A stretch of DNA of 64,000 nt from Enterobacteria phage vB_EcoM_IME339. The translations under genes were made by a program, and so were the position numbers. Position 1 is the first letter of the stretch; the number at the start of each line of letters is the position of its first letter. The stretch lies in the sequence record MH051915. One strand, written 5' to 3'. Below are positions 1 to 18,044 of the stretch, one piece after another. The notes under the pieces are model-generated. The model did not search any database. It had not been told where the DNA came from and worked only from the letters and a program-made list of their open reading frames with translations.

Positions 1-2
1 TA

Positions 3-272
3 TTTAAAGATGGCGATGTTCCTGGATTAAATACAAATAGCATGTGGAGCTTTATTGATTACTTAACTGTATCTCGTATGAAACAGTGCGGTCTTCCATG
101 CCCAATTACTGATGCTCCGGTTAAACATCCGTATCCTTGGATTCGTGAATATCTTAATTCTGATAATGTTCAATCAGCGCCACAAGAAGTAGAACTGTCA
201 TCTTACCTTGTTGCACAGATTGATAATGATGTTGATGATAAAGTTATGATGAGTTTTAAAAAATATTTTTAA
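3..272 (+). CDS. nrdB: Ribonucleotide reductase beta subunit NrdB, C-terminal fragment (5' end outside window)
   Basis: Frame open from position 3; tail ...SSYLVAQIDNDVDDKVMMSFKKYF resembles the class Ia R2 C-terminus (E. coli ...[21 protein letters not shown]); sits upstream of denA as in T4. Confidence 0.75.
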   Translation, partial: FKDGDVPGLNTNSMWSFIDYLTVSRMKQCGLPCPITDAPVKHPYPWIREYLNSDNVQSAPQEVELSSYLVAQIDNDVDDKVMMSFKKYF

Positions 273-276
273 GGAG

Positions 277-299
277 TGGGCCGCAAGGCCCATTTTATT
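277..299 (+). terminator. GC stem-loop GGGCCGCAAGGCCC followed by ATTTTATT, between nrdB stop and denA ATG
   Basis: Perfect 5-bp GC stem with GCAA loop and U-rich tail; could also act as a structured RBS element. Confidence 0.5.
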
Positions 300-1887
<1,588 letters not shown>

Positions 1888-1890
1888 GCT

Positions 1891-1944
1891 GTTTACAAGT
1901 CCCTCGTGTTGTGTTATAGTAATTTTACTGACATAACATGAGGA
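1891..1944 (+). promoter_or_regulatory. Early (sigma70-type) promoter plus leader and SD upstream of alc; copy 1 of a 54-bp perfect repeat
   Basis: GTTTAC -35, about 17-18 nt spacer, TATAGT -10-like hexamer, then leader ending in GAGGA; identical 54 bp at 17669-17722. Confidence 0.6.
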
Positions 1945-1951
1945 CTTTATG

Positions 1952-2455
1952 ATGGATTTGCAGCTTATTACTACTGAGATGGTCGTTGAAGCATACGGTG
2001 ATACTACAGATGGGATTTCTGTATTTAAAGGAAATCGTCGAGTTGGATATATCACCGATCTTAAGAAAGATTTAGCTAAGCAAGTCAAGCGGAAAACGAC
2101 CATTAAAGAATATCGAAATCGTCGTCTTGAGCAAGCCCGTGATATGCTTCCTGATGCAGTTGAGGAGATGAAAGTCTTTTTAGAAAATCAGCTTGCGAAA
2201 TATGATTGTGATGTGTTCATTAATCAGACTCAACCTAATGTTCATATCAATAATTGTAAATGCTACATCATCGTTAATCCTTTGACGGGAAAACATCGTC
2301 TTGGAATCAGTAATCCAAATCGTAGCGCATCGGATATGGCAGAAGATGTTGAGGCATGCTTTAAAATTTCTAAATCTCCTGCTGAACATCATATTTTAAT
2401 TAACGGTCTTTCTCAAGACGATATTATAGAGGTTATTAAAACTTTATGCAATTAA
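1952..2455 (+). CDS. alc: Alc, inhibitor of host transcription elongation on cytosine DNA, 167 aa
   Basis: Position between rnlA and pseT cluster and length match T4 alc; second ATG chosen for better SD spacing. Confidence 0.8.
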   Translation: MDLQLITTEMVVEAYGDTTDGISVFKGNRRVGYITDLKKDLAKQVKRKTTIKEYRNRRLEQARDMLPDAVEEMKVFLENQLAKYDCDVFINQTQPNVHINNCKCYIIVNPLTGKHRLGISNPNRSASDMAEDVEACFKISKSPAEHHILINGLSQDDIIEVIKTLCN

Positions 2456-2799
2456 ATAATACGACAGCAGGCTTGCTATTAATTGTAATTGCATTGGGCG
2501 GAACTTCTTTAATTTTAAAAAGTAAAATTGAAAGATTAGAAACGTCTGTTGTAGAAATTACAAAAACGGCCAATGAAAACGCTTTAGCATTAGATAATTT
2601 GCGAATTCAGTATAATTATATTGATGCGATGAATAATAAAAATCGTGAGGCAATTGCTGCTATTGAGCGTGAAAATGAAAAACTGCGCAAAGACGCAAAG
2701 AAGGCGGATGTGGTGGCTCATAAGCCAGGATTGGTTGAAAAACAAATCAACAACTCCTTCAACAAGTTCGCAGAAGACATCCAGGACCTTTCTAAATGA
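2446..2799 (+). CDS. Hypothetical membrane-anchored protein (N-terminal TM helix, coiled-coil rest)
   Basis: ORF with ATG overlapping alc stop; hydrophobic segment TAGLLLIVIALGGTSLIL. Confidence 0.55.
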   Translation: MQLNNTTAGLLLIVIALGGTSLILKSKIERLETSVVEITKTANENALALDNLRIQYNYIDAMNNKNREAIAAIERENEKLRKDAKKADVVAHKPGLVEKQINNSFNKFAEDIQDLSK

Positions 2800-3095
2800 T
2801 TAAACTATCAGCAGTAATATTATCTATTGGTCTTCTAGTTGGTTGTTCGACAAAGCCTCTAGAAGTAAAGAAAGAAACAGTTCATCCTAATTGGCCTGTG
2901 CAGATAAAGTCATATGATGAAGCTAAACTATCCTGGCAAGTTAAAGTTATTGATGGTAAAGCTTGGGTCGGTATGCCATTCGAAGATTCCCAGGAATTTC
3001 GTATTTGGCTTAATGATGTAAAACGATATGTACATGACCAAAAAACTATGATATGTTATTATCGCCAAGAGTTAAAAGAGGATAAATGCAAATGA
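2796..3095 (+). CDS. Hypothetical lipoprotein (signal peptide with lipobox LVGC)
   Basis: MIKLSAVILSIGLLVGCSTK...; ATGA start/stop overlap with preceding ORF. Confidence 0.6.
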   Translation: MIKLSAVILSIGLLVGCSTKPLEVKKETVHPNWPVQIKSYDEAKLSWQVKVIDGKAWVGMPFEDSQEFRIWLNDVKRYVHDQKTMICYYRQELKEDKCK

Positions 3096-3318
3096 TTTCA
3101 TGGCATCAATTTGAACATCTCAAAGGATTGATTTATGAATCCGAGATGGCTGCAATGATTTATGGACGCCAGATTCAACGATTAGAATCTTTACCTCCAA
3201 CCAATGATGTTTTATTAGCTCAATCACGTGCTAATCTTAAAAATGAATATCAAAATAAGTGGGGTAAAGCATCTAAAGACCTGCATGATTATATTCAATC
3301 ATTAGTTGAGAAAAATAA

Positions 3319-3322
<4 letters not shown>
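3086..3322 (+). CDS. Hypothetical protein, 78 aa
   Basis: ORF in tightly packed operon; ATG start overlapping neighbour. Confidence 0.5.
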
Positions 3323-4526
<1,204 letters not shown>

Positions 4527-4723
4527 TGGCGTGGCATCATGAAACTTGGTCTATTGTTATTGTAAATAGCGGTTTAGTTGGTACTAGTAATGGGCAATTT
4601 TGCGTATTCACTAGTGAAATTAGAGCTTGGGAGGAATGTCTTAAATTAAGAGAAAAGAATCCTGATGTTGAACTAACAGTAAAGAAAACTAAACTGCCTT
4701 TACCATGGAAAACTTATGAATAA
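4527..4723 (+). CDS. Hypothetical protein, 65 aa
   Basis: Track ORF starts at 4496 inside pseT; ATG at 4527 immediately after pseT TAA with GGAG 9 nt upstream. Confidence 0.5.
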
Positions 4724-4916
4724 CATAGAAAAGATTTATCGACTTTGTGATAAAATTGAAAAAGAAAAGAAATATCTATTTTGTTTATGGCCTATTGTTG
4801 ATGGAAGAGTAGGCTTAGATGTTCTTGATTATGAAACAGAAGACAAAGTAGATGGTTCAACTTTTGATAATGCGTTGGATGTTATTGATTGGCTTGAAGA
4901 AAATTATGTGAGGTAA
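4716..4916 (+). CDS. Hypothetical protein, 66 aa
   Basis: ORF, ATG start overlapping previous stop. Confidence 0.5.
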   Translation: MNNIEKIYRLCDKIEKEKKYLFCLWPIVDGRVGLDVLDYETEDKVDGSTFDNALDVIDWLEENYVR

Positions 4917-4918
4917 AT

Positions 4919-5194
4919 ATGTTTCCGACTTATTCTAAAATCGTAGAAGTAGTGTTTAGCCAAATTATTGCTAATAATATGTTTGAAAAGCTTGATAACG
5001 CAGCTGAGCTTCGAATTCATGCTCAGGTGACTCATGTATTGAACGCTTTGCTTCCAGACCAAGTGGATTCTATTGCAATTACGCTGTATCCAGGTTCCGC
5101 GCATATCATTGTCGTATTCGGTTTTGATGCTGAGCTAGTCATCAAAGGCGATATTCGCTTTGAATCACAGACATCAGAATTCAAAGCAATTTAA
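4919..5194 (+). CDS. Hypothetical protein, 91 aa
   Basis: ORF with GAGGT SD upstream of ATG. Confidence 0.5.
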   Translation: MFPTYSKIVEVVFSQIIANNMFEKLDNAAELRIHAQVTHVLNALLPDQVDSIAITLYPGSAHIIVVFGFDAELVIKGDIRFESQTSEFKAI

Positions 5195-5196
5195 TA

Positions 5197-5226
5197 GTTT
5201 ACTTTAAGGTAGAGTTGTGATATTAT
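5197..5226 (+). promoter_or_regulatory. Early promoter upstream of ORF 5257 (GTTTAC -35, TATTAT -10)
   Basis: GTTTAC...18 nt...TATTAT; inverted repeat GGTAGAG/CTCTACC spans the -10 region. Confidence 0.5.
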
Positions 5227-5256
5227 AGCTCTACCAAAACAAATGAGGAAATTGAA

Positions 5257-5784
5257 ATGAGCGAATGGTTTGAAGAAGATAAGGTTTATCGCTTTAAAGC
5301 TGGGTATAAAGATATTTTTAATGAAACCTGCGGGGCTAATAAACGAATTGCCCAGTTTATTGGGGAAAATTCATTTAAAGTAAAAATAGATCCTGCGAAA
5401 AATGTTATTAGCATTAAACGTGAAATTGATGATTGCTGGTATAAAGCTGTTGATGTAATGGGCGAATCCTATAAAGTTAGCCCGTTATTTTCAATTGCTT
5501 ATATGTTAGAATATTCTTTTTTCGAAGAAGTTCAAAAAGATGATTCTACAAGTAAATTTGAAATTAAAACTGATAAAGAAATTAAGTGGAAAGTAGTAGG
5601 TATTACTGGTTGTATGTTTTATATCTATGCTCAAACTGATACGAAGGAAGAAGCTAAAAAGAAAGCTCTAGAATATCTTGAAGAGTATGAAGAAGGCCCG
5701 GTAATGATTACCCAAGATGCCGAATTAGTTTCTGTCAAATTAGTTAAAAACGTTGAAAGTAAGGAGCTGGGATCAACATGCTAA
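5257..5784 (+). CDS. Hypothetical protein, 175 aa
   Basis: ORF with own early promoter and GAGGAA SD. Confidence 0.6.
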   Translation: MSEWFEEDKVYRFKAGYKDIFNETCGANKRIAQFIGENSFKVKIDPAKNVISIKREIDDCWYKAVDVMGESYKVSPLFSIAYMLEYSFFEEVQKDDSTSKFEIKTDKEIKWKVVGITGCMFYIYAQTDTKEEAKKKALEYLEEYEEGPVMITQDAELVSVKLVKNVESKELGSTC

Positions 5785-6014
5785 GTGAAAAACCAATTAC
5801 TACTAAAGAATTCCAAGAAAAAGTTAAACTATTTGCTCAAGAATTGGTAAATAAGGTTTCTGAACGATTTCCTGAAACGTCGGTTCGTGTTATTACCGAA
5901 ACTCCTCGTTCAGTATTAGTAATTGTGAATCCAGGTGATGGTGACCAAATAACACATCTTAAACTGGATTTTGATGGATTAGTTGAAGCACAAAGGGTGT
6001 ATGGCGTACTATGA
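5778..6014 (+). CDS. Hypothetical protein, 78 aa
   Basis: ORF, AAGGAG upstream. Confidence 0.5.
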   Translation: MLSEKPITTKEFQEKVKLFAQELVNKVSERFPETSVRVITETPRSVLVIVNPGDGDQITHLKLDFDGLVEAQRVYGVL

Positions 6015-6349
6015 TGAATTTAACTGATATAATTGATAATTGTCTTGAAAATGATACTGGCGATCATAGAGCGCTTGATTCTGAAACAGCACAGTTCATT
6101 AGAATAACTTTAATGAATGATACTCTAGTGAATAGTATTCATCCTTCTGTGTATGATGCTATTATTGTGACGAAGTATCCAGTTGAGCTTCACAAAAAGA
6201 TGGCTGGTGCAATTTTTATTGATAAGAAAAACCGCTTTAAAGATGGGCAGAATATAATTAGTTCTGTTATTAAAAGTATAACTAAACTTCGTCACGAAAT
6301 TTATCGTGTTGAAACTGCTAAATCTGCTTATCTGGTGATTATGAAATGA
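6011..6349 (+). CDS. Hypothetical protein, 112 aa
   Basis: ORF, ATGA overlap with neighbours. Confidence 0.5.
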   Translation: MMNLTDIIDNCLENDTGDHRALDSETAQFIRITLMNDTLVNSIHPSVYDAIIVTKYPVELHKKMAGAIFIDKKNRFKDGQNIISSVIKSITKLRHEIYRVETAKSAYLVIMK

Positions 6350-6927
6350 AAGCGAGTACAGTACTTCAAATTGCATATTTAGTATCACAAGAATCAAAAT
6401 GTTGCTCCTGGAAGGTAGGAGCAGTAATTGAAAAGAATGGACGTATTATTTCTACCGGATATAATGGTTCTCCGGCAGGTGGTGTGAATTGCTGCGATTA
6501 TGCTGCCGAGCAAGGTTGGTTGCTGAATAAGCCTAAACATACTATCATTCAAGGTCATAAGCCTGAATGCGTATCGTTTGGTTCAACTGACCGTTTTGTT
6601 TTGGCGAAAGAACACCGCAGCGCTCACTCTGAATGGTCGTCTAAAAATGAAATTCATGCTGAACTAAATGCGATTTTGTTTGCTGCACGAAACGGTTCTT
6701 CAATTGAAGGTGCTACTATGTATGTAACACTTTCTCCTTGCCCGGATTGTGCAAAAGCCATAGCTCAATCTGGAATTAAAAAACTGGTTTATTGCGAAAC
6801 ATACGATAAGAATAAACCTGGCTGGGATGATATTCTGCGAAATGCAGGTATTGAAGTGTTTAATGTTCCTAAGAAAAACTTGAATAAGTTAAATTGGGAA
6901 AATATCAACGAATTCTGTGGTGAATAA
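6346..6927 (+). CDS. cd: dCMP deaminase, 193 aa
   Basis: Zinc-binding deaminase motifs HAELNAI and SPCPDCAKAI; length and position match T4 cd. Confidence 0.92.
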   Translation: MKASTVLQIAYLVSQESKCCSWKVGAVIEKNGRIISTGYNGSPAGGVNCCDYAAEQGWLLNKPKHTIIQGHKPECVSFGSTDRFVLAKEHRSAHSEWSSKNEIHAELNAILFAARNGSSIEGATMYVTLSPCPDCAKAIAQSGIKKLVYCETYDKNKPGWDDILRNAGIEVFNVPKKNLNKLNWENINEFCGE

Positions 6928-7163
6928 TGAAATTTCGTTTGGTACAGCTCACAGCAATTAGTTCTTATTCTAACGAGAACATTTCATTTGCTGTAGAGTA
7001 TAAGAAGTATTTTTTCTCTAAATGGAAACAGTATTATAAGTCAGAATGGGTTTGTATTGATAGGCCGTATAGTTGGAAATCTGATTTAGAAAAATGCCAA
7101 AAGTTGCTTTCCACTCTTAAAGAACGTGGAACAACCCATATTAAAACTGTAATAGGTAAATAA
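6927..7163 (+). CDS. Hypothetical protein, 78 aa
   Basis: ORF between cd and 31. Confidence 0.5.
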   Translation: MKFRLVQLTAISSYSNENISFAVEYKKYFFSKWKQYYKSEWVCIDRPYSWKSDLEKCQKLLSTLKERGTTHIKTVIGK

Positions 7164-7472
7164 ATGAAATTGACAACTGAACAGAAAGTAGCAATTCGTG
7201 AAATTTTGAAAACTAAATTGTCCATGGGTATTTCAAACGTGGTTTTTGAAAAGTCTGATGGTACTATTCGTACTATGAAAGGCACTCGTGATGCTGACTT
7301 TATGCCAACTATGCAAACCGGTAAATTGACTGAATCTACTCGGAAAGAATCTACTGATATGATTCCAGTATTTGATGTTGAACTCGGTGCATGGCGAGGT
7401 TTTTCTATTGACAAATTGATTTCCGTTAATGGCATGAAAGTTGAGCATTTGCTCCAATTTATTGGTAAATAA
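7164..7472 (+). CDS. Hypothetical protein, 102 aa
   Basis: ORF between cd and 31. Confidence 0.55.
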   Translation: MKLTTEQKVAIREILKTKLSMGISNVVFEKSDGTIRTMKGTRDADFMPTMQTGKLTESTRKESTDMIPVFDVELGAWRGFSIDKLISVNGMKVEHLLQFIGK

Positions 7473-7473
7473 A

Positions 7474-7498
7474 TGCTTTAAGAATTATTTGTTATTAT
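7474..7498 (+). promoter_or_regulatory. Candidate MotA-dependent middle promoter for gene 31
   Basis: MotA-box-like ATGCTTTA followed 12 nt later by TATTAT. Confidence 0.45.
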
Positions 7499-7528
7499 TA
7501 ATTCATCTGTTAACAAAAAGGAAAAACG

Positions 7529-7864
7529 ATGTCTGAAGTACAACAGCTACCAATTCGTGCTGTCGGTGAATATGTGATTTTAGTTTCTGAACCTGCACAA
7601 GCCGGTGATGAAGAAGTTACAGAATCAGGACTTATTATTGGTAAACGTGTCCAAGGTGAAGTTCCTGAACTGTGTGTAGTTCACTCTGTTGGTCCTGATG
7701 TTCCTGAAGGTTTCTGCGAAGTTGGTGATTTGACTTCTCTTCCAGTTGGTCAAATTCGAAACGTTCCTCATCCTTTTGTAGCTCTGGGTCTTAAGCAGCC
7801 AAAAGAAATTAAACAAAAATTCGTAACCTGTCACTATAAAGCTATTCCGTGTTTTTATAAGTGA
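7529..7864 (+). CDS. 31: Co-chaperonin gp31 (GroES functional analogue), 111 aa
   Basis: Length, position and sequence character match T4 gp31. Confidence 0.9.
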
Positions 7865-7865
7865 T

Positions 7866-7873
7866 ATAAATAA
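7866..7873 (+). promoter_or_regulatory. Late-promoter motif TATAAATA upstream of rIII
   Basis: Exact TATAAATA octamer about 140 nt upstream of the rIII ATG. Confidence 0.4.
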
Positions 7874-8011
7874 TAATATGAATTGGGTGTCGGAATAATA
7901 AGTTAACCGAACAATTCTATGTGGTAGTCTACAACTGAGAGATCTGTCGAAAGAAGATGAAATTCAGAAGAACGTGACTACCGAGTTTTAATCTCTAACG
8001 AGAATTTTTAA

Positions 8012-8260
8012 ATGATTAAACAATTACAACACGCTCTTGAACTGCAACGAAACGCATGGAATAATGGTCACGAAAACTATGGCGCATCTATTGATGTTGA
8101 AGCCGAAGCTCTTGAAATCCTGCGTTATTTCAAACATCTGAATCCTGCTCAAACTGCATTAGCTGCTGAGCTTCAGGAAAAAGATGAACTTAAGTATGCT
8201 AAGCCTCTGGCTTCTGCTGCACGAAAAGCAGTTCGTCACTTTGTGGTAACACTGAAGTAA
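8012..8260 (+). CDS. rIII: rIII lysis-inhibition accessory protein, 82 aa
   Basis: 82-aa ORF between 31 and the 30.x cluster, as in T4. Confidence 0.8.
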   Translation: MIKQLQHALELQRNAWNNGHENYGASIDVEAEALEILRYFKHLNPAQTALAAELQEKDELKYAKPLASAARKAVRHFVVTLK

Positions 8261-8454
8261 TTTATTGGAGAGTCACTGCCTTAGTGTGAAGTTAAAACGA
8301 GGAGCCGTCGAACTTTGTTTTACGGTGTACCTCTTGAATGTTGACGAGGTTTATGGTTATCCTGTCGGTAAATATTCAAAACCTAAGTACCCCTTGAGGG
8401 CTTTCGCAGGCAATGCCAATAAGTCCTGCATTTTCATTTAAAAGAGAATTTATA

Positions 8455-8631
8455 ATGGCAAAACAAGCTAAAGCAAAGAAAGCAGTTGAAAAGAAAGTTG
8501 GTGATTCTAAACGCGCTGGTTACAAGCGTGGGTCGAACTCTCGTATCAATCAAACTGTTGAGAAGATCATGCGCCGAGCACGTGCGGTTCTTCGAGATGA
8601 TGCTTCTCGTTTTGGTAAGCAGAAAGCATAA
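8455..8631 (+). CDS. Hypothetical very basic small protein, 58 aa
   Basis: MAKQAKAKKAVEKK...; track start 8413 lacks an SD; followed by a strong terminator. Confidence 0.4.
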   Translation: MAKQAKAKKAVEKKVGDSKRAGYKRGSNSRINQTVEKIMRRARAVLRDDASRFGKQKA

Positions 8632-8636
8632 GTTGA

Positions 8637-8665
8637 GGACTCCTTCGGGAGTCCTTTTTTATTTT
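8637..8665 (+). terminator. Intrinsic terminator GGACTCCTTCGGGAGTCC plus TTTTTTATTTT
   Basis: Perfect 7-bp stem with TTCG loop followed by U-run. Confidence 0.8.
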
Positions 8666-8684
8666 CCAAAGATTGCATAAAGTT

Positions 8685-8717
8685 GTTTACAGTATAGTTC
8701 CTTTGTGATAGTATTAT
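8685..8717 (+). promoter_or_regulatory. Early promoter (GTTTAC -35, TAGTAT/TATTAT -10) upstream of ORF 8742
   Basis: Motif match at appropriate spacing. Confidence 0.5.
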
Positions 8718-8741
8718 CTTACACAAACAAAGGAGAATAAA

Positions 8742-9074
8742 ATGAAAACGATTAATCTGAACGCTACAGTTAAAACTAAATGCTTCAATGGTAAATATGA
8801 TGAAACTATGTGGTTCTTAATGGCAGTTGAAGGTGATATTATTGAAGTAGAAACAACAGAAGGTATGGGAACAGATTTCACCTTTACAATTCAAGTTCAT
8901 AATTTCTTTACTGGTTGGATTTATGAATTGAATACAGTAATCGTTGGAAAAATTGAACAAAATGAATTGGGTGAATGGTATTATGTTACAGCCCGCCAAC
9001 GTGCCGAACGCTTAATTGAGAAGATGAAAAAAGTTGGTAAACTTGACATGCAACATTGGAAAGTAGTAAAATAA
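8742..9074 (+). CDS. Hypothetical protein, 110 aa
   Basis: ORF with AAGGAG SD. Confidence 0.6.
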   Translation: MKTINLNATVKTKCFNGKYDETMWFLMAVEGDIIEVETTEGMGTDFTFTIQVHNFFTGWIYELNTVIVGKIEQNELGEWYYVTARQRAERLIEKMKKVGKLDMQHWKVVK

Positions 9075-9076
9075 TT

Positions 9077-9105
9077 GTTTACTTTGGTACAGGATATGAT
9101 ATTAT
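9077..9105 (+). promoter_or_regulatory. Early promoter (GTTTAC -35, TATTAT -10) upstream of ORF 9143
   Basis: Motif match; 17 nt spacer. Confidence 0.5.
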
Positions 9106-9142
9106 ATACCTGTACCGCAATTAAACATCTCGGAGAATAAAA

Positions 9143-9508
9143 ATGAACTACATCAACTTTGAACGTAAATATGTTTCTAATGGTATTGTAGGTTCTATTG
9201 ATACTATCTGCCTTTGGAAACATCAAAATGGATCAGTATGCGAAATTGAACAGTATATGACTCCTAACTACGTTTATATGCGATTTGAAAATGGCATCAC
9301 GGTTTCAATCACGAAAGAAGGTTCTTCTTTTAAAATCGCATTAGATGATGATTTCCGTCAACGCGATTTAGGTACTCATCCTTGCTGGAATGGCGTCAAT
9401 CGTAAGCTTCTGGTTAAAACTTGGATTCGTCATATTCTGAGTAACAGAGCTAAACCTGAGCATCTTGAAGCGATCTTTGATGTAGTTCTTAACGAATTTG
9501 ATATTTAA
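9143..9508 (+). CDS. Hypothetical protein, 121 aa
   Basis: ORF with GGAGAA SD. Confidence 0.6.
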   Translation: MNYINFERKYVSNGIVGSIDTICLWKHQNGSVCEIEQYMTPNYVYMRFENGITVSITKEGSSFKIALDDDFRQRDLGTHPCWNGVNRKLLVKTWIRHILSNRAKPEHLEAIFDVVLNEFDI

Positions 9509-9549
9509 AATAAAATGAGGGGCTTCGGCCCCTTACTGAGGAAAATACT

Positions 9550-9837
9550 ATGTTTATGACTACTTATTTTGATACCCGCAAAAATTTCTGTGAAGTGGTT
9601 TTCTCTAAGGCACCTAAAGACCTTCCTGCTCATTTGCAACCTACCAGTGAATCAATTAAAAACTACGTTAATGTAGTCTGCCCTTTAGAGTTCCGTACTG
9701 TAAATGGGCGTGATACTCTAGCTATTACTAAACTCAATCGTGAAATTGACATTGACCCTTCAATTGCGCGCGAAATTAATATTTCTGATATTGGCGGCGG
9801 TAATGTTAAATCGCACGGTTTTCAGATGAGGTTTTAA
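9550..9837 (+). CDS. Hypothetical protein, 95 aa
   Basis: ORF with GAGG SD. Confidence 0.55.
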   Translation: MFMTTYFDTRKNFCEVVFSKAPKDLPAHLQPTSESIKNYVNVVCPLEFRTVNGRDTLAITKLNREIDIDPSIAREINISDIGGGNVKSHGFQMRF

Positions 9838-10034
9838 TGAAATTCTTTTTAGGTCAAACTGTTGAATTAAAGGGAGTTGGTATACCTGGATTAATTTCTA
9901 AGGTTCTACCTCCATTTAAATGGAGTGGTATTCAAATAAAAGAGGCTTATATTGTTTCCTGGGTAGATGGAAATGAAGACCTTCGTATGGGTGATGAATT
10001 ATCTCCTATCTATGGATTAAAGGAATTAATATGA
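9837..10034 (+). CDS. Hypothetical protein, 65 aa
   Basis: ORF, ATGA overlap. Confidence 0.5.
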   Translation: MKFFLGQTVELKGVGIPGLISKVLPPFKWSGIQIKEAYIVSWVDGNEDLRMGDELSPIYGLKELI

Positions 10035-10237
10035 ATATAATTAATAAGATTTTTGGAATTCAGTACATTAAGGTCACATATAAAGTAACGTATAAAGGTC
10101 CGTATACCGATGAACATGAAGAGCCACAAGTTCAGTCTATTATATTAGAAAAGGACCCTAACTGGCCAGTTGAATTTCGTCTTCCTTGCTATGGTCATTG
10201 GGCTGATGTTGAAATTATAAGTATTGAAAATGTCTGA
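10031..10237 (+). CDS. Hypothetical protein, 68 aa
   Basis: ORF, ATGA overlap. Confidence 0.5.
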   Translation: MNIINKIFGIQYIKVTYKVTYKGPYTDEHEEPQVQSIILEKDPNWPVEFRLPCYGHWADVEIISIENV

Positions 10238-10688
10238 GTTAGAGATTAGAAGCAATTTTAGATGGCCATCATGTGCATTAAGTAATTTCGCCCAATGGCC
10301 TTTTGTTATGGATGGTATCCAATTTGGAGGTCTCGAAGGATTCCTCCAAGGATGCAAGGTGAAAAATGTTGAACAACAGCGTCGTATATTTGGGTTATCC
10401 GGGCTTGCCGCCCAACAAGCTGGAAGGTCTTATGCAAGAGCTCAGGACCGTGGCACGTTGTTCTGGCTTGGAACTCCGTTTTCAAGATATTCCGAAGCAT
10501 GGAAAGAATTATACACAAATGCATATTTTGAAGCAGCGATCCAAAACAAGGGATTTCGCAATGCATTACAAGCCTCGAAAGGAAAAGTTTTGAAGCATAG
10601 CATGGCTAGTGGTCTAACAAAAGATGATACAATACTAACCGAAGCTGAATTTATTGATGTGTTAAACCTATTAAGAGACTCTCTATGA
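10230..10688 (+). CDS. NADAR/YbiA-like (DUF1768) domain protein, about 152 aa
   Basis: LSNFAQWPFVMDGIQFGGLEGFLQGCK matches the NADAR signature (YbiA FSNFAAWPIKVDGKTWPTSEHYFQAQK); track start 10224 is TTG, ATG at 10230. Confidence 0.7.
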   Translation: MSELEIRSNFRWPSCALSNFAQWPFVMDGIQFGGLEGFLQGCKVKNVEQQRRIFGLSGLAAQQAGRSYARAQDRGTLFWLGTPFSRYSEAWKELYTNAYFEAAIQNKGFRNALQASKGKVLKHSMASGLTKDDTILTEAEFIDVLNLLRDSL

Positions 10689-11548
10689 AGCCAACTATTT
10701 TGACTGATATTGATGGAGTATGTTTAAGCTGGCAATCAGGCCTTCCTTATTTTGCTCAGAAATATAATCTTCCATTAGAACATATTTTAAAAATGATCCA
10801 AGATGAGAAATTTATTTCTCCAGGTAAACTCTTTAATTGTGACGAAGAACTTGGCGTCAAGTTAATTGAAAAATACAATCGTTCAGATTTTATTCGTTAT
10901 TTGTCTCCGTATAAAGATGCCCTGTGTGTAATTAACAAATTAAAAGAAGATTATAATTTTGTAGCTGTTACAGCATTGGGTGATTCTATTGACGCTCTGT
11001 TGAATCGTCAATTTAATTTGAATGCTCTTTTTCCTGGTGCCTTCTCAGAAGTAATGATGTGTGGTCATGATTCTTCAAAAGAAGAGTTATTCAAAAAGGC
11101 AAAAGAGAAATATAACGTAATTTGTTATATTGACGATCTCGCTCACCACTGCGACCATGCGAGTGAAATATTAAATGTTCCGGTTTATTGGATGGCTCGA
11201 GGAGAGCGTGATAAAATTCCAAAAACTGCGCAGCGAGTTTATACATGGAATGATGTAGAAAATAAGCTTTTTTCACCAAAGGAAAATAAAGAAAGTTTTG
11301 ATAGTGAAAAAGCTATAAAAGATGTAATTGAGAAGATGGTTAAAAACGATTCTTTTCGTTGGAACACTACCTGGAGAACTCCTGGATTTAATCCGTATAA
11401 TCCATATTATACACATCCATATAATCCATATTATACACACCCGTATCATATGAATCCATTCCATACGTGGAGTTATACCAAGCCTGGCGATGCAGGGTAT
11501 TTTAATAGATTTACTAGTGGTGATAATATTTTCCAAGGAGCATTCTAA
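10685..11548 (+). CDS. HAD-superfamily hydrolase-like protein with C-terminal Pro/Tyr/His-rich repeat tail, 287 aa
   Basis: N-terminal motif I ILTDIDGV (DxDG), later CYIDDLAHHCD; C-terminus NPYNPYYTHPYNPYYTHPYHMNPFHTW. Confidence 0.65.
   Translation: MKPTILTDIDGVCLSWQSGLPYFAQKYNLPLEHILKMIQDEKFISPGKLFNCDEELGVKLIEKYNRSDFIRYLSPYKDALCVINKLKEDYNFVAVTALGDSIDALLNRQFNLNALFPGAFSEVMMCGHDSSKEELFKKAKEKYNVICYIDDLAHHCDHASEILNVPVYWMARGERDKIPKTAQRVYTWNDVENKLFSPKENKESFDSEKAIKDVIEKMVKNDSFRWNTTWRTPGFNPYNPYYTHPYNPYYTHPYHMNPFHTWSYTKPGDAGYFNRFTSGDNIFQGAF
11401..11448 (+). repeat. Imperfect 24-bp tandem direct repeat (2 copies) encoding the PYNPYYTH repeat
   Basis: tccatattatacacatccatataa / tccatattatacacacccgtatca. 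Confidence 0.6.
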
Positions 11549-11817
11549 TGTTTGTCGTTCACACTATTTATGAAAATGAAGGTAATACTACGCGTGATTA
11601 CGGTCACGTAAATCAATTTTTTAGATGCAATCCAGAGTTCCGAGCTCAAAAGGATGAACGAATTTTTAAAAAATGTGTAGAGCAAGGTTTCATTTATATC
11701 AAGCACTGGATGCAAGGAAATAAAGTTAGAACTACATATCATAGGTCTTTAACTGAGCTTAATGATGAATTGATTTATAATAGAGCTGTAAATCAAACTC
11801 TGAAGGATGAACAATGA
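11548..11817 (+). CDS. Hypothetical protein, 89 aa
   Basis: ORF with AAGGAG SD immediately upstream of ligase. Confidence 0.55.
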   Translation: MFVVHTIYENEGNTTRDYGHVNQFFRCNPEFRAQKDERIFKKCVEQGFIYIKHWMQGNKVRTTYHRSLTELNDELIYNRAVNQTLKDEQ

Positions 11818-13277
11818 TTCTTAAAATTCTGAATGAAATAGCATCTATTGGATCAACTAAGCAGAAGCAAGCAATTCTTGAAAAGAATAAAGATAATGAA
11901 TTGCTTAAACGAGTATATCGTCTGACTTATTCTCGTGGGTTACAGTATTATATCAAGAAATGGCCTAAACCTGGTATTGCTACCCAGAGTTTTGGAATGC
12001 TGACTATTACCGATATGCTTGACTTCATTGAATTCACGTTAGCTACTCGGAAATTGACTGGAAATGCTGCAATTGAGGAATTAACTGGATATATCACTGA
12101 TGGTAAAAAGGATGATGTTGAAGTTTTGCGTCGAGTTATGATGCGAGACCTTGAATGTGGTGCTTCAGTATCTATTGCAAACAAAGTTTGGCCAGGTTTA
12201 ATTCCTGAACAACCTCAAATGCTAGCAAGTTCTTATGATGAAAAAGGCATTAATAAGAATATCAAGTTTCCAGCTTTTGCACAGCTAAAAGCAGATGGAG
12301 CTCGGTGTTTTGCTGAAGTTCGAGGTGATGAATTAGATGATGTTCGTCTTTTATCACGAGCTGGTAATGAATATCTAGGATTAGATCTTCTTAAGGAAGA
12401 GTTAATCAAAATGACTGCTGAAGCCCGCCAGATTCATCCAGAAGGTGTGTTAATTGATGGCGAATTGGTATACCATGAGCAAGTTAAAAAGGAACCAGAA
12501 GGCCTAGATTTTCTTTTTGATGCTTATCCTGAAATTAGTAAAGCTAAAGAATTCGCCGAAGTAGCGGAATCTCGTACTGCTTCTAATGGAATCGCCAATA
12601 AATCCTTAAAAGGAACCATTTCTGAAAAAGAAGCTCAATGCATGAAGTTTCAGGTCTGGGATTATGTCCCGTTGGTAGAAATATACGGTCTTCCGGCATT
12701 TCGTTTAAAATATGATGTACGTTTTTCTAAACTAGAACAAATGACATCAGGATATGATAAAGTAATTTTAATTGAAAACCAAGTAGTAAATAACCTAGAT
12801 GAAGCTAAGGTAATTTATAAAAAGTATATTGACCAAGGTCTCGAAGGTATTATTCTCAAAAATACCGATGGATTGTGGGAAAATGCTCGTTCAAAAAATC
12901 TCTATAAATTTAAAGAAGTAATTGATGTTGATTTAAAAATTGTAGGAATTTATCCTCACCGTAAAGACCCTACTAAAGCGGGTGGGTTTATTCTTGAATC
13001 AGAGTGTGGAAAAATTAAAGTAAATGCAGGTTCAGGCTTAAAAGATAAAGCCGGTGTAAAATCGCATGAACTTGACCGTACTCGCATTATGGAAAACCAA
13101 AATTATTATATTGGAAAAATTCTAGAGTGCGAATGCAACGGTTGGTTAAAATCTGATGGCCGCACTGATTACGTTAAATTATTTCTTCCGATTGCGATTC
13201 GTTTGCGTGAAGATAAAACTAAAGCTAATACATTCGAAGATGTATTTGGTGATTTTCATGAGGTAACTGGTCTATGA
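11814..13277 (+). CDS. 30: ATP-dependent DNA ligase (gp30), 487 aa
   Basis: Translation MILKILNEIASIGSTKQKQAILEKNKDNELLKRVYRL... recognised as T4 DNA ligase; contains adenylation-site KADGAR (motif I). Confidence 0.95.
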   Translation: MILKILNEIASIGSTKQKQAILEKNKDNELLKRVYRLTYSRGLQYYIKKWPKPGIATQSFGMLTITDMLDFIEFTLATRKLTGNAAIEELTGYITDGKKDDVEVLRRVMMRDLECGASVSIANKVWPGLIPEQPQMLASSYDEKGINKNIKFPAFAQLKADGARCFAEVRGDELDDVRLLSRAGNEYLGLDLLKEELIKMTAEARQIHPEGVLIDGELVYHEQVKKEPEGLDFLFDAYPEISKAKEFAEVAESRTASNGIANKSLKGTISEKEAQCMKFQVWDYVPLVEIYGLPAFRLKYDVRFSKLEQMTSGYDKVILIENQVVNNLDEAKVIYKKYIDQGLEGIILKNTDGLWENARSKNLYKFKEVIDVDLKIVGIYPHRKDPTKAGGFILESECGKIKVNAGSGLKDKAGVKSHELDRTRIMENQNYYIGKILECECNGWLKSDGRTDYVKLFLPIAIRLREDKTKANTFEDVFGDFHEVTGL

Positions 13278-13462
13278 AAGCTTACTTAGAAACAATTGTC
13301 GTTGCTCAAAAAGAAGGTGGAGATGTTTCTACTTCTGTATCACAAATTATGATTGAATTTATAGATGCATATGCTTATAATAAATTCACAGAAACATTTG
13401 ATGCCTATGAAAAAGGTCCAAAGTTTGAAATATACCGTACTCTCTTACCAATAGATTATTAA
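13274..13462 (+). CDS. Hypothetical protein, 62 aa
   Basis: ATG overlaps ligase stop (ATGA); followed by terminator hairpin. Confidence 0.5.
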   Translation: MKAYLETIVVAQKEGGDVSTSVSQIMIEFIDAYAYNKFTETFDAYEKGPKFEIYRTLLPIDY

Positions 13463-13482
13463 AGGCCTTCGGGCCTTTAATT
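13462..13482 (+). terminator. Stem-loop AAGGCCTTCGGGCCTT with T-rich tail
   Basis: Perfect stem with TTCG loop followed by TAATTTTAT. Confidence 0.6.
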
Positions 13483-13483
13483 T

Positions 13484-13491
13484 TATAAATA
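13484..13491 (+). promoter_or_regulatory. Late-promoter motif TATAAATA upstream of alt
   Basis: Exact octamer about 25 nt upstream of the alt ATG, consistent with late expression of a packaged protein. Confidence 0.5.
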
Positions 13492-13514
13492 GAATAAACA
13501 CTAGAGAGGATATG

Positions 13515-15608
13515 ATGGAACTCATTACAGAATTATTTGACGAAGATACTACTCTTCCGATTACAAACTTAAATCCAAAGAAGAAAATACCACAAATTTT
13601 TTCAGTTCATGTTGATGACGCAATTGAACAACCAGGCTTTCGTTTATGTACCTATACATCTGGAGGTGATACTAACCGTGATCTAAAGATGGGCGATAAA
13701 ATGATGCATATTGTTCCTTTTACATTAACTGCTAAAGGTTCAATTGCTAAATTAAAAGGTCTCGGTCCAAGCCCAATTAATTATATCAATTCAGTTTTTA
13801 CTGTTGCGATGCAGACGATGCGTCAGTATAAAATTGATGCCTGTATGCTCCGTATTCTTAAGTCTAAAACTGCTGGTCAAGCTCGTCAAATTCAACTTAT
13901 TGCTGATAGACTTATCCGTAGTCGCTCAGGCGGCAGATACGTCCTTCTTAAGGAACTTTGGGATTACGATAAAAAGTATGCATATATTCTTATACATCGC
14001 AAAAATGTATCACTAGAAGACATTCCAGGAGTTCCGGAAATTAGTACCGAGCTCTTTACTAAAGTTGAATCGAAGGTCGGTGATGTTTATATCAATAAAG
14101 ATACTGGAGCTCAAGTAACTAAAAATGAGGCAATTGCTGCATCTATTGCGCAAGAAAATGATAAACGTTCTGACCAAGCTGTAATCGTTAAAGTTAAAAT
14201 TTCCCGTAGAGCAATTGCACAAAGTCAATCATTAGAATCTTCTAGATTTGAAAGTGAATTATTCCAGAAGTATGAATCTACCGCAGCTAATTTCAATAAA
14301 CCTGCTACCGCTCCTTTAATTCCCGAAGCGGAAGAAATGAAACTTGGAATTAATTCAATAGCTTCTAAAACTAAGGCAGCAAAAATCATTGCCGAAGGAA
14401 CTGCAGATGAACTTCACTATGATTATAAATTCTTTTCAAAAAGTGAGGTTAATGAAGTTTCTGAAAAAATTAAAGATGTAATTCTTAATGCGATTAAAAA
14501 TGAACCAACTACTTCAATAAAATGTTTAGAGAAATACGCAGCAGCTGTTAATCAATTCTTTGAAGAATATAAAGATAATTGGCTTGATAAACATAATAAA
14601 ACTCGTAAAGGGCAGCCAGATGAAGTCTGGGAAGAAATAACTAAAAATTCCTGGAATGCAGCAAAAACTAAATTCCTTAAAAGAATGATTTATAGCTTTT
14701 CTGGAATTGGTGCAGGTCCAATGATTGATATTACTATTGCCCGTGATGGTTCTAAATATACTCCATCACAAAAGCGCGGCATTAGAGAGTATTGTGGTTC
14801 AGGATATACTGACATCAATAATCTTCTTTTGGGTCGTTACAATCCAGAACGATATGATGTAATGAGTGAAAAAGAAATTGAATCTGCTATAAATAACTTA
14901 GATTCAGCTTTTGAAAATGGCGACCGTATACCAGAAGGCATTACAGTTTATCGTGCTCAAAGCATGACTGCTCCTATATACGAAGCATTAGTTAAAAATA
15001 AAGTATTCTATTTCAGAAATTTTGTATCTACTTCTTTAACTCCTATCATTTTTGGACGTTTTGGAATTACGCATGCTGGTATTGGTCTTTTAGAACCAGA
15101 AGCTCGTAATGAATTGACAGTTGATAAAAATGAAGAAGGAATAACTATTAATCCAAACGAAATAAGAGCGTATAAAGAAAATCCTGAATACGTTAAAGTT
15201 CAAATAGGATGGGCAATTGATGGAGCTCATAAAGTTAATGTTGTATATCCAGGAAGTCTCGGAATAGCAACAGAAGCTGAAGTTATTCTACCACGCGGAT
15301 TGATGGTCAAAGTTAATAAAATAACTGATGCTTCTAATAACGATGGAACAACATCTAATAATACAAAACTCATTCAAGCTGAAGTTATGACTACGGAAGA
15401 ACTCACCGAATCGGTAATTTATGACGGTGACCGTCTAATGGAAACTGGTGAAGTAGTTGCAATGACAGGTGATATTGAAATAGAAGACAGAGTTGACTTT
15501 GCATCATTTGTTTCATCAAATGTTAAACAAAAAGTAGAATCATCTCTTGGAATTATTGCGTCTTGCATAGATATTACAAACATGCCTTACAAGTTCGTTC
15601 AAGGATAA
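13515..15608 (+). CDS. alt: Alt-type mono-ADP-ribosyltransferase (packaged internal head protein), 697 aa
   Basis: N-terminus MELITELFD; C-terminal R-S-E ART signature (YRAQS, FVSTSL, EAEVILPRG); located next to ligase as in T4. Confidence 0.88.
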   Translation: MELITELFDEDTTLPITNLNPKKKIPQIFSVHVDDAIEQPGFRLCTYTSGGDTNRDLKMGDKMMHIVPFTLTAKGSIAKLKGLGPSPINYINSVFTVAMQTMRQYKIDACMLRILKSKTAGQARQIQLIADRLIRSRSGGRYVLLKELWDYDKKYAYILIHRKNVSLEDIPGVPEISTELFTKVESKVGDVYINKDTGAQVTKNEAIAASIAQENDKRSDQAVIVKVKISRRAIAQSQSLESSRFESELFQKYESTAANFNKPATAPLIPEAEEMKLGINSIASKTKAAKIIAEGTADELHYDYKFFSKSEVNEVSEKIKDVILNAIKNEPTTSIKCLEKYAAAVNQFFEEYKDNWLDKHNKTRKGQPDEVWEEITKNSWNAAKTKFLKRMIYSFSGIGAGPMIDITIARDGSKYTPSQKRGIREYCGSGYTDINNLLLGRYNPERYDVMSEKEIESAINNLDSAFENGDRIPEGITVYRAQSMTAPIYEALVKNKVFYFRNFVSTSLTPIIFGRFGITHAGIGLLEPEARNELTVDKNEEGITINPNEIRAYKENPEYVKVQIGWAIDGAHKVNVVYPGSLGIATEAEVILPRGLMVKVNKITDASNNDGTTSNNTKLIQAEVMTTEELTESVIYDGDRLMETGEVVAMTGDIEIEDRVDFASFVSSNVKQKVESSLGIIASCIDITNMPYKFVQG

Positions 15609-15611
15609 ATC

Positions 15612-17669
15612 ATGGAACTTATTACAGAATTATTTGACGGCGCTTCGGCGCCGGTTGTTAACTTAAATCCTAAGCATAAAATACCTCAAATTTTTGCTAT
15701 TCAAGCTGGTGAAGAAAGCGTGCTTCCTGGATTTAGATTTTGTACATACACCTCTGGCGGTGATACAAATAAAAACGTTAAGCCAGGCGATAAAATGATG
15801 CATATCGTAATGATAGGTGTTAATGAGAAACTATCATTAGTTAAACTTAAAAACTTGGGTGGAAATCCAATTGGTGTCATTAATGCGGTTTTTGATACTG
15901 CTCTTCAAACAATGAAACAGTATAAAATTGATGCATGCTTATTCCGCGTACTAAAAAGTAAAACAAATGGCGCTGCTCGTCAAATGCAAGTTATTGCTGA
16001 CCGTTTAGTACGTACTAAAGGAGCAGGTCGATATGTTCTTTTAAAGGAAATCTGGGATTATGATAAAAAGTATGCATATATTATGGTTTACCGTAAAAAT
16101 GCCAATTTAGAAGACATTCCAGGTGTACCTCCTATTTCAACTGAGTTATTCACAAAAGTTGAATCAAAGGTTGGTGATGTTTATGTAGATGTTAAAACAG
16201 GTAATGCTGTTCCTAAAGCTGTTGCTGTTGCTGCTTCTATTGCTTTAGAAAATGATAAGCGCACGGATCAAGCTGTTATTCAGAAAACTAAAATTAGTCG
16301 TCGATTAGCAGCACAAGCTCAATATTCTACTGTCGATGCTTCACTACAGGGTGATAGCTTCGCTGCCAAGAAATATCAAGAGTTTGAATCTAAAGTTCCG
16401 GTATATAAAGCAGAAGGACCAATGAACTCTGGCGTTATTCAGATTGGTTCAAACTTCGGCAAAGGAGCTATCGGTGGTATGAGAAGTGCTTCTCGTTTTA
16501 AATCTAACGATTATGAACTAGAAAGCTTCCGAAATCATATTGCATTGGCCCATGCACGTTTACGTGATCCGTCTATCAGGCTGCAGAGCGATATAACACA
16601 TCAAGGTTCTCAAGAATATTTAAAGAATAAAGAATTCTTTGATTATAAAACCGATAAAATTTTGAGCGATCTCGCTGACATTAATATTTCTAATAGCTTT
16701 GATGTTATTAAGAAAATTATCAATGATTTAGTTAAAGGTTCTAAAGCCACGCCAGATGAAAAGGTAGCTATTATTCAATTTGTCATGAATGGCATTTATA
16801 AATTGATTAATGAATCTGCTGCTCAGGCATATGAATACGCAAGCACCGAAGTAACTCCAAAAGGACTGACTCAGGCTGAGTCTAATGTAATTGAAGATTA
16901 TTGTGCAGATTCATATGTTGAAATGAACTCGTTCCTCTTGGGTAAACCAGATTCTACCCGTGAAGAATACATGGAACGAGCTATTAAACACATCGAGACG
17001 CTGGATTCTGCATTCGCCAAAGGATCAGTTCTTCCTCCAGGAACTACGCTTTATCGTGGACAAGAAGTTACTTTTAAAACTTTACGCCATAATATTGAAA
17101 ATAAAATGTTCTATTTCAAGAACTTCGTATCAACATCGCTTAAACCAAATATCTTCGGTGAGCATGGTAAAAACTATATGGCTCTAGATGATTCCGGCGC
17201 AGTATTTTCTGGTGAAGGAGAAGGTTCTGTTGATGCTGAAGATTTAATGCATATGGGTAGTCATTCTGCATATGCTAATGAAGATGCTGAAACTAGCGTA
17301 GGTATGGTAATTAAAGGGGCTGAGCGAATCAAAGTTATCGTTCCAGGTCATTTATCAGGATTTCCATCAGAAGCTGAAGTTATTCTACCGCGTGGAATTT
17401 TGTTGAAGATTAATAAAGTAAGCACGTATATGATGAAAGAAACTGCTTATAACAAGTATCTAATCGAAGGCACAATCGTTCCTCCTTCTGAACAATTAGA
17501 AGAATCGGTATATGATGGCGATCATCTAATGGAAACTGGCGAAGTTCGTCCAATGGCTGGGTTTAATCAATTCCTTGTAGAAGAATCAAAAGAAGAGGAA
17601 AACGAAGTTTCTCAAATCTTGGCTTCTTTGGTTAACATCAACGGAATGTCTAAAAAGTTCAAGATGTAG
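15612..17669 (+). CDS. Second Alt-type ADP-ribosyltransferase paralogue, 685 aa
   Basis: Starts 3 nt after alt stop; N-terminus MELITELFD; high similarity over first ~225 aa, divergent centre, conserved ART motifs (YRGQE, FVSTSL, EAEVILPRG). Confidence 0.85.
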   Translation: MELITELFDGASAPVVNLNPKHKIPQIFAIQAGEESVLPGFRFCTYTSGGDTNKNVKPGDKMMHIVMIGVNEKLSLVKLKNLGGNPIGVINAVFDTALQTMKQYKIDACLFRVLKSKTNGAARQMQVIADRLVRTKGAGRYVLLKEIWDYDKKYAYIMVYRKNANLEDIPGVPPISTELFTKVESKVGDVYVDVKTGNAVPKAVAVAASIALENDKRTDQAVIQKTKISRRLAAQAQYSTVDASLQGDSFAAKKYQEFESKVPVYKAEGPMNSGVIQIGSNFGKGAIGGMRSASRFKSNDYELESFRNHIALAHARLRDPSIRLQSDITHQGSQEYLKNKEFFDYKTDKILSDLADINISNSFDVIKKIINDLVKGSKATPDEKVAIIQFVMNGIYKLINESAAQAYEYASTEVTPKGLTQAESNVIEDYCADSYVEMNSFLLGKPDSTREEYMERAIKHIETLDSAFAKGSVLPPGTTLYRGQEVTFKTLRHNIENKMFYFKNFVSTSLKPNIFGEHGKNYMALDDSGAVFSGEGEGSVDAEDLMHMGSHSAYANEDAETSVGMVIKGAERIKVIVPGHLSGFPSEAEVILPRGILLKINKVSTYMMKETAYNKYLIEGTIVPPSEQLEESVYDGDHLMETGEVRPMAGFNQFLVEESKEEENEVSQILASLVNINGMSKKFKM

Positions 17670-17722
17670 TTTACAAGTCCCTCGTGTTGTGTTATAGTAA
17701 TTTTACTGACATAACATGAGGA
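17669..17722 (+). promoter_or_regulatory. Early promoter plus leader and SD; copy 2 of the 54-bp perfect repeat
   Basis: Identical to 1891-1944; precedes ORF 17730. Confidence 0.6.
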
Positions 17723-17729
17723 ACACAAA

Positions 17730-18020
17730 ATGAAATCTTCTTTACGCTTTTTAGGTCAAGAACTTGTAGTTGAAGGCGTTATTCCTGCTGATAACGCTTT
17801 TAATGAAGCAGTTTATGATGAATTTATCAAAATTTTTGGAACAGATAAAAAGTTCGGAATTTTTCCTTCTGAAAATTTTTCAAAGCCAGAACAGACTGAA
17901 AGCATTTTCCAAGGTGTAGTAACAGGCAAATTTGAGTCAGAAGCTCCGGTAAAAATTGAAGTTTATATTGAAGACAGTTTAGTTGCTTCAGTTGCTGCTT
18001 TTATTTCATTCCGTAAATAA
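17730..18020 (+). CDS. Hypothetical protein, 96 aa
   Basis: ORF with GAGGAA SD from the repeated leader. Confidence 0.6.
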   Translation: MKSSLRFLGQELVVEGVIPADNAFNEAVYDEFIKIFGTDKKFGIFPSENFSKPEQTESIFQGVVTGKFESEAPVKIEVYIEDSLVASVAAFISFRK

Positions 18021-18026
18021 AAATAT

Positions 18027-18044
18027 GGGGACCTTTCGGTCCCC
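18027..18044. terminator. Bidirectional terminator hairpin GGGGACCTTTCGGTCCCC between convergent genes
   Basis: Perfect stem; T-rich tracts on both strands; sits between convergent ORF 17730 (+) and gene 54 (-). Confidence 0.7.

Follow-up and report, generated by a model that had tools for sequence, protein, structure and literature searches.

A duplicated early-promoter cassette with a hairpin predicted to mask the ribosome-binding sites of alc and alt.-3 in a T4-like phage

A perfect 54-nt repeat upstream of alc and alt.-3 appears to place a T4-type early promoter within an RNA hairpin that would mask the ribosome-binding site (RBS) of the gene downstream. In read-through RNA, the promoter spacer and the -10 element (5′ arm) would pair with the leader and the Shine-Dalgarno (SD) sequence (3′ arm), and a stem of about 22 bp would bury the SD. 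RNA made from the cassette's own promoter would start in the loop or in the 3′ arm, and its SD should be free because the 5′ arm is missing from that RNA. On the modelled structures, the hairpin probably, if by no means certainly, largely restricts the translation of alc and alt.-3 to own-promoter transcripts. Translation of either gene would be poor on early and middle transcripts arriving from upstream and on late ones such as those of the late promoter before alt; the alc copy would receive its read-through RNA from promoters that precede rnlA. Since the internal promoter is of the early type, the two genes would be expected to be expressed in the immediate-early period only.

We also advance, tentatively and at slightly under an even chance, a wider proposal. 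A conserved device that has gone unremarked until now, an anti-SD hairpin built into an early promoter, would limit Alc synthesis to immediate-early transcripts in at least eight genera of T4-like phages; in the ancestor of Tequatrovirus, ectopic conversion would then have carried the whole device over 13-16 kb to alt.-3 and rewired the translational control of that gene. If true, this would explain the tight schedule of alc and alt.-3 despite early, middle, and late read-through transcripts. The alc product shuts off host transcription, and alt.-3 is the locus of T4 escape from the CmdTAC defence system: the gene is non-essential, and mutants with a C-terminal extension evade CmdTAC (PMC11618068). 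The design would also bear on T4-like phage engineering and promoter reuse, as the promoter spacer itself is predicted to pair with the SD.

The repeat and its gene context

The 54-mer GTTTACAAGTCCCTCGTGTTGTGTTATAGTAATTTTACTGACATAACATGAGGA occurs twice on the + strand with 0 mismatches between the copies (exact match), at 1891-1944 in the gap between rnlA and alc (copy A) and at 17669-17722 in the gap between alt.-2 and alt.-3 (copy B). The first-pass annotation of this DNA had reported the pair and proposed a search for further copies; no third one was found in the window (the whole 64-kb stretch analysed), even with 3 mismatches allowed. The chance expectation was 0 matches across 100 shuffles. 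A GenBank search with the 54-mer hit 995 places in 498 phage records, or about two per Tequatrovirus genome; two copies were present in every one of the 60 records listed, and the total of 995 in 498 allows one exception. Chance and an assembly artefact, the latter named in the first-pass annotation as a possible refutation, are both ruled out by the exact repeat, the shuffles and the roughly 498 two-copy records. Further relatives were taken from GenBank records, and IMG/VR searches returned just 5-6 loci each.

The window belongs to Tequatrovirus (T4-like phages). It is 97-99% identical to many GenBank phages, and its + strand corresponds to the direction of early transcription in T4. The gene order on this strand is rnlA (gene 63, 763-1887), alc (1949-2455), the pseT/cd/31/rIII/30.x genes, gene 30 (DNA ligase, 11814-13277), alt (13512-15608), alt.-2 (15612-17669) and alt.-3 (17730-18020). 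The inhibitor of host transcription, alc, follows copy A, and rnlA lies upstream of that copy as a source of read-through transcripts; alt.-2, a full-length alt paralogue, lies directly upstream of copy B, and alt.-3 encodes a conserved 96-aa protein. A terminator scan placed a bidirectional terminator-like hairpin at 18025-18046 (both strands) between alt.-3 and gene 54, which closes the transcription unit, gene 54 sitting beyond it on the other strand. The gene context given in the first-pass annotation was essentially right, except that the block enclosed by the copies extends from alc to alt.-2, not from rnlA to alt; rnlA lies upstream of copy A.

The identity between the copies breaks off sharply at the edges of the unit. 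Copy A is preceded by taagct and followed by ctttatgatg, and copy B is preceded by gatgta and followed by acacaaaatg. The unit starts with the G of GTTTAC, straight after the upstream stop codon, and ends with the last A of GAGGA. The rnlA stop codon is at 1885-1887, while the G closing the alt.-2 stop codon TAG is also the first base of copy B. The flanks had been taken for diverged paralogous sequence, a description that does not hold: the upstream genes are rnlA and alt.-2, and Alc and Alt.-3 share no BLASTP similarity. Paralogous flanks were therefore rejected as the source of the repeat. The tie once drawn between the second copy and the extra alt paralogue fails as well, since T4 still has both copies although its alt.-2 is reduced to remnants.

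A 32-kb record named 'Staphylococcus phage SAJK-IND' (MG010123.1) is 98.8% identical to the alt.-2/alt.-3 junction and is probably mislabelled or contaminated. Elsewhere in the window, at 26422-26541, a 60-nt segment (20 codons) is perfectly duplicated, head to tail and in frame, within a small - strand ORF at 26319-26621 (100 aa) that adjoins a helicase-like ORF (26635-28146). In the best 8 of 498 matching records, the 361-nt query was covered within 301 nt in two pieces, so those eight relatives lack the extra 60-nt copy.

Promoter elements and predicted masking of the Shine-Dalgarno sequence

A consensus scan of copy A found a candidate promoter at 1892-1920 (+ strand), made up of a -35 TTTACA at 1892-1897, a 17-nt spacer, a TG at 1912-1913 and a -10 TATAGT at 1915-1920; copy B has the same elements at 17670-17698 (+ strand). 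The match to consensus is 10/12, plus the TGn before TATAGT. From these elements we infer a transcription start about 7 nt after TATAGT, near A1927 in copy A and A17705 in copy B, which corresponds to about A37 of the unit and to the border between the loop and the 3′ arm. The leader within the unit would be about 20 nt long and is followed by GAGGA, the putative SD of alc (1940-1944, + strand) and of alt.-3 (17718-17722, + strand). The earlier description of an early promoter, a leader and a GAGGA SD before an ATG thus agrees with the predicted TTTACA-17-TGn TATAGT arrangement. In other genera, GTTTACA and a TAnnnT hexamer are kept at the corresponding position.

The GAGGA stands 7 nt before the alt.-3 ATG, where copy B ends, and 4 or 7 nt before the two ATGs of alc, which starts with a tandem ATGATG (1949-1954). 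The real alc start is probably at 1952, 7 nt past GAGGA, because the T4 annotation takes the second ATG and phage LF73P3 has ATAATG at this place. A RegB site was considered and rejected by reading the sequence, the unit having GAGGA rather than GGAG.

The late-promoter motif TATAAATA is absent from the unit. It is found just upstream of alt at 13484-13491 (+ strand), and between that motif and 18025 the terminator scan gave no terminator-like + strand site; late transcripts starting at 13484-13491 would be expected to cross alt and alt.-2 into copy B. No exact late-promoter motif was found upstream of rnlA within the window. A terminator-like hairpin (AAAGGCCTTCGGGCCTTT and a T run) at 13462-13491 abuts the late promoter TATAAATA just upstream of alt, forming a compact terminator/late-promoter junction within an otherwise early transcription unit.

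The whole unit is predicted to fold as one RNA hairpin, in which unit positions 7-31 (spacer and -10) pair with positions 36-57 (leader, SD and three more bases). In read-through RNA, hairpin A (1897-1947, + strand) has a 22-bp stem with a one-base and a two-base bulge, a 4-nt AUUU loop and a 3′ arm formed by the leader, the SD and CUU (MFE -24.4 kcal/mol, z -5.4). Hairpin B (17677-17724, + strand) has a 20-bp stem whose base carries a C.A mismatch (MFE -23.0 kcal/mol, z -4.8). The modelled own-promoter transcripts have no significant structure (z -0.7 for A and +0.8 for B). In the read-through RNA, the GAGGA of alc is predicted to pair with the UCC-CUC of the promoter spacer, its probability of being unpaired being 0.03, vs 0.67 in the own-promoter transcript. 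Similarly, opening the RBS of copy A is predicted to cost 21.3 kcal/mol in read-through RNA but only 5.4 when the transcript starts at the own promoter; for copy B, the corresponding figures are 17.1 and 4.3 kcal/mol. The sense strand folds better than the antisense strand (-24.4 vs -15.4 kcal/mol for A and -23.0 vs -17.2 for B) because several stem pairs are G.U. The G.U pairs and this asymmetry favour a sense RNA structure over a DNA cruciform in Tequatrovirus, and make a cruciform or a protein operator unlikely in this genus; outside Tequatrovirus, sense and antisense fold equally well. No Rfam family matched either copy at E values up to 1, in a search of window positions 1-20000.

A related early-promoter cassette lies upstream of gene 30.8 (8685-8744, + strand), where the spacer UUCCUUUGU is predicted to pair with the cassette's own SD ACAAAGGAG (dG -12.1); opening of this RBS would cost 11.8 kcal/mol in read-through RNA vs 1.0 in its own transcript. 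This cassette and two other T4-type early promoter cassettes, at 5197-5259 and 9077-9145, carry inverted repeats bracketing the -10. In the latter two, unlike in the gene 30.8 cassette, the hairpin lies around the -10 and does not involve the SD. Together with copies A and B, three of the five cassettes in the window show complementarity between spacer and SD. A hairpin enclosing the -10 may be common to T4-type early promoters in general.

By sequence definition, the element fits the class of promoter-early stem-loop (PeSL) cassettes of T4-type phages (Arbiol et al. 2010, PMC2839356; Comeau et al. 2014, PMC4122927), and its placement as a new example of known phage designs is well supported. 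As in PeSLs, the candidate promoter is an early one of sigma70 type, and at the sequence level TTTACA-17-TATAGT fits the PST/T4 PeSL consensus TTTACW-N17-TAYWAT. Both copies are intergenic, between an upstream stop and a downstream ATG; a stable stem-loop lies within or overlaps the promoter, here spanning spacer, -10 and leader; an SD and a start codon are found at the 3′ end; and the element is repeated in the genome, PeSL copies being implicated in recombination with one another. Unlike in PeSLs, however, the 3′ arm consists of the leader and the SD itself, and the copies lie 15.8 kb apart across essential genes rather than in a hyperplastic cluster of small ORFs. In addition, the published role of the PeSL stem-loop is that of a terminator or attenuator, whereas the 22-bp stem found here is much longer, is AU/GU-rich and has no U-run.

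The hairpin might nevertheless be the terminator/attenuator half of a PeSL, damping rnlA or alt.-2 transcription or protecting the 3′ ends of these mRNAs, with the burial of the SD only incidental. The PeSL stem-loop lowers the expression of a downstream reporter, and a terminator/attenuator role was proposed for it (Arbiol et al., PMC2839356). PeSL stem-loops are also often placed between -35 and -10 or overlapping the -10 (PMC2839356), and the early promoters at 5198 and 9078 described above have -10 hairpins that do not touch the SD. However, no U-run follows either stem (CUUUAUGAUGG, AACACAAAAUG), neither copy was flagged by the terminator scan, and the stems are AU/GU-rich where the RB49 stem-loops are G/C-rich. 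Moreover, eight genera share a feature that a plain terminator would have no need of: the SD is the exact end of the 3′ arm, and the 5′ arm opens with an anti-SD. We therefore find this explanation unlikely. An intrinsic terminator proper, which the unit resembles in having a stable stem-loop at a gene end, was rejected at both copies for the missing U-tract, the stem that is not G+C-rich and the negative scan. If RBS masking is instead the function, a second role would be suggested for at least some PeSL stem-loops that were earlier read as terminators.

The principle of masking is experimentally established for T4 e (lysozyme), soc, 49 and I-TevI, whose long transcripts bury the SD and/or the AUG (PMC3014915). 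As in these genes, a promoter in or near the 5′ arm is predicted to give shorter, translatable transcripts without that arm, and the SD is predicted to be paired in upstream-derived RNA, the helix in our case being backed by covariation. Unlike here, the internal promoters of e, soc, 49 and I-TevI are late and delay expression; the unit's candidate promoter is an early sigma70 promoter. Neither alc nor alt.-3 is among the examples of RBS-masking structures in PMC3014915 and other reviews, and an earlier mention in older T4 papers is possible.

A role in translational coupling has also to be weighed, in which a ribosome terminating at the rnlA or alt.-2 stop codon would open the stem, so that translation of the downstream gene would be tied to that of the upstream one. 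In all genera, GTTTAC follows the upstream stop at a distance of 0-3 nt, and the anti-SD arm begins 6-12 nt past the stop. Given the size of ribosome footprints, this distance is within reach of a terminating ribosome. Coupling would not need the strong promoter predicted within the cassette, however, and the tight spacing may merely reflect a compact genome; we judge it quite unlikely as the main function. As the upstream stop is 3-12 nt before the stem, terminating ribosomes could melt the anti-SD arm, and the block proposed in the masking model may be leaky or act as coupling.

Conservation and compensatory changes of the hairpin

The same design is found between rnlA and alc in Dhakavirus (VR5, QL01), Gelderlandvirus, Karamvirus, Moonvirus, Jiaodavirus, Winklervirus and Bragavirus. 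In these seven genera, GTTTACA is directly followed by the anti-SD arm, and the hairpin has the -10 close to its top and the SD at the end of its 3′ arm. The sequences of the arms vary from genus to genus (for example, UCUCCAUUUGG/CCAAAUGGAGA, UCCUCAUCAG/CUGAUGAGGA and AACCUCUCAUUUU/AAAAUGAGAGGUU), and with Tequatrovirus included the alc hairpin is kept in eight genera through many compensatory changes. Over the ten SD-proximal pairs, 95.8% of the alignment cells are paired and 8/10 pairs have changed on both sides; the observed score was reached in 0/500 shuffles, and slid controls were only 39-59% paired. This 10-bp alignment of the lower stem was anchored by hand, with bulges removed, because MAFFT alone misaligned the 3′ arms of Tequatrovirus with those of the other genera. 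For the seven non-Tequatrovirus sequences, unsupervised MAFFT followed by RNAalifold recovered the same helix, with compensatory changes in 6/13 pairs. Selection on the leader RNA, one of two causes offered earlier for the perfect identity of the copies, is supported by this compensatory variation in a hairpin that the first-pass annotation had missed.

The design is absent from both loci in Mosigvirus and partial in Kanagawavirus, in which the hairpin stops 5 nt short of the SD. It was not seen in Gaprivervirus RZ, Tulanevirus or one Acinetobacter phage. In Gaprivervirus RZ, and also in UPEC07, two CDSs 13 nt apart are both annotated 'inhibitor of host transcription'; in RZ, alc is seemingly split or partly duplicated, and the promoter cassette of the rnlA-alc gap is out of its usual place.

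Within Tequatrovirus, both copies were extracted from 11 genomes, and they differ from each other by 0-5 bases per genome. The changes sit in the loop (AUUU, GUCU, GACU, GUAU, AUCU) or in a bulge, or they preserve pairing. For example, G16.U49 has become A-U several times, and U25.G40 is U-A in T4 copy B. Pair 15/50 is found as C-G, as U.G (T6 copy B and L016) and as U-A (PV654517 copy B), the SD itself being AAGGA in PV654517 copy B. The change C11 to U is found only at copy B, where it mends the C.A mismatch made by the copy-B flank GAGGAAC and raises the predicted stability from about -23.6 to -26.3 kcal/mol; some relatives thus carry GTTCCTTATG, in which the mismatch is repaired in the copy-B context. 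A U.U mismatch in T6 copy A is a counter-example to the preservation of pairing.

The stem could also serve as a processing site for RNase III or another double-strand-specific enzyme, splitting the messages and either activating or destroying the RBS of alc and alt.-3. With its roughly 22 bp and small bulges, the stem of copy A falls in the size class of RNase III substrates. In the other genera, however, the conserved helix has just 10-17 bp, which is short for this enzyme, and what is conserved is the pairing of SD and anti-SD and not the length of the stem. This leaves processing a very slight probability. The masking model would itself account for the likeness of copies A and B: nearly every base of the unit serves the promoter or the SD and also the stem, and this dual constraint, with occasional further conversion, would keep the copies alike.

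Origin of copy B and exchange between the two loci

The alc version of the cassette, conserved across Tevenvirinae and Bragavirus, would be the ancestral one. The spacer between alt and alt.-3 in Dhaka-, Karam-, Jiaoda-, Winkler- and Mosigvirus also carries an early promoter, with a different spacer; in these five genera, the alt.-3 promoter has a free SD and a small local hairpin whose loop is of the AAGGAY type. The alc-type cassette is found at alt.-3 in Tequatrovirus only. Because the alt.-3 cassette differs in the other genera, copy B of Tequatrovirus appears to be the derived copy, and these comparisons are most simply read as an overwriting of the alt.-3 promoter, in the ancestor of Tequatrovirus, by a copy of the alc cassette extending from the -35 to the SD. 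Ectopic recombination or gene conversion would have brought about this replacement of the resident promoter. The suggestion of a portable expression cassette is borne out to this extent, an alc-type cassette having apparently been copied to the alt.-3 locus in this lineage, in agreement with the description of PeSLs in the literature as recombination linkers. If so, Tequatrovirus would provide a clear natural instance of post-transcriptional control being carried between distant loci by a PeSL-type cassette, and a dated example of such a transfer.

Similar exchanges are suggested by two other genera. In Dhakavirus VR5, an identical 32-nt leader ACCTTACACAAACATGAGGAGAACATTATGAA is found upstream of alc and alt.-3, with different promoter spacers, which points to a partial exchange between the two loci. 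In Mosigvirus PhAPEC2, both loci have a cassette of the alt.-3 type, in which the spacer forms a small hairpin and the SD is free; the two are about 70% alike. Taken together, the comparisons indicate that the alc and alt.-3 loci have exchanged sequence in three genera, Tequatrovirus, Dhakavirus (VR5) and Mosigvirus. The annotated alc start of PhAPEC2 extends back across the promoter and overlaps the rnlA stop; it is probably an over-extended ORF call.

The first-pass annotation attributed the perfect identity of the two copies, failing selection, to recent gene conversion. The exact 82-nt copy-A locus of the window is found in 5 records and the copy-B locus, again as an exact match, in 7. No record belongs to both sets, and no GenBank genome has both alleles of the window. 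The perfect identity is a rare combination of alleles that could have arisen by intragenomic conversion or by mixing between phages. Since the allele sets are disjoint, recombination between phages could explain the identity, so recent conversion, while possible, is not required.

The repeats might instead persist mainly as recombination substrates that delete or duplicate the 15.8-kb block, their identity reflecting recent intragenomic conversion. PeSL pairs recombine and form mini-circles in RB49 and phi1 (PMC2839356). The past exchanges of the alc and alt.-3 loci in Tequatrovirus, VR5 and Mosigvirus also speak for recombination, as does the distance between A and B, which is slightly lower within genomes (2.36) than between genomes (2.96), with 140/20000 permutations as low, although this low within-genome value rests on shared derived alleles of only two genomes. 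The unit is about the minimal length for homologous recombination in T4, according to the citation of Singer et al. 1982 in PMC2839356, which makes a rare exchange between A and B plausible.

Against this explanation, the block contains gene 30 (DNA ligase) and gene 31, the alleles of the window are held by disjoint sets of phages, for which mixing between phages suffices, and two copies are present nearly everywhere (995 places in 498 records). Loss of genes 30 and 31 should be lethal, as known from T4 genetics, and a 15.8-kb duplication exceeds the terminal redundancy of a T4 headful. For these reasons, a viable deletion or duplication phage is unlikely. The deletions and duplications envisaged earlier left no trace in the records: no genome rearranged between A and B was found among about 498, nor any one- or three-copy pattern suggesting such an event. 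Recombination is not the best explanation for the conservation of the sequence, and we consider it very improbable as the main role of the repeats. Finally, the alt genes next to copy B are variable in number among the relatives: Dhakavirus QL01 has three tandem full-length alt paralogues, the window has two, and T4 has one plus remnants.
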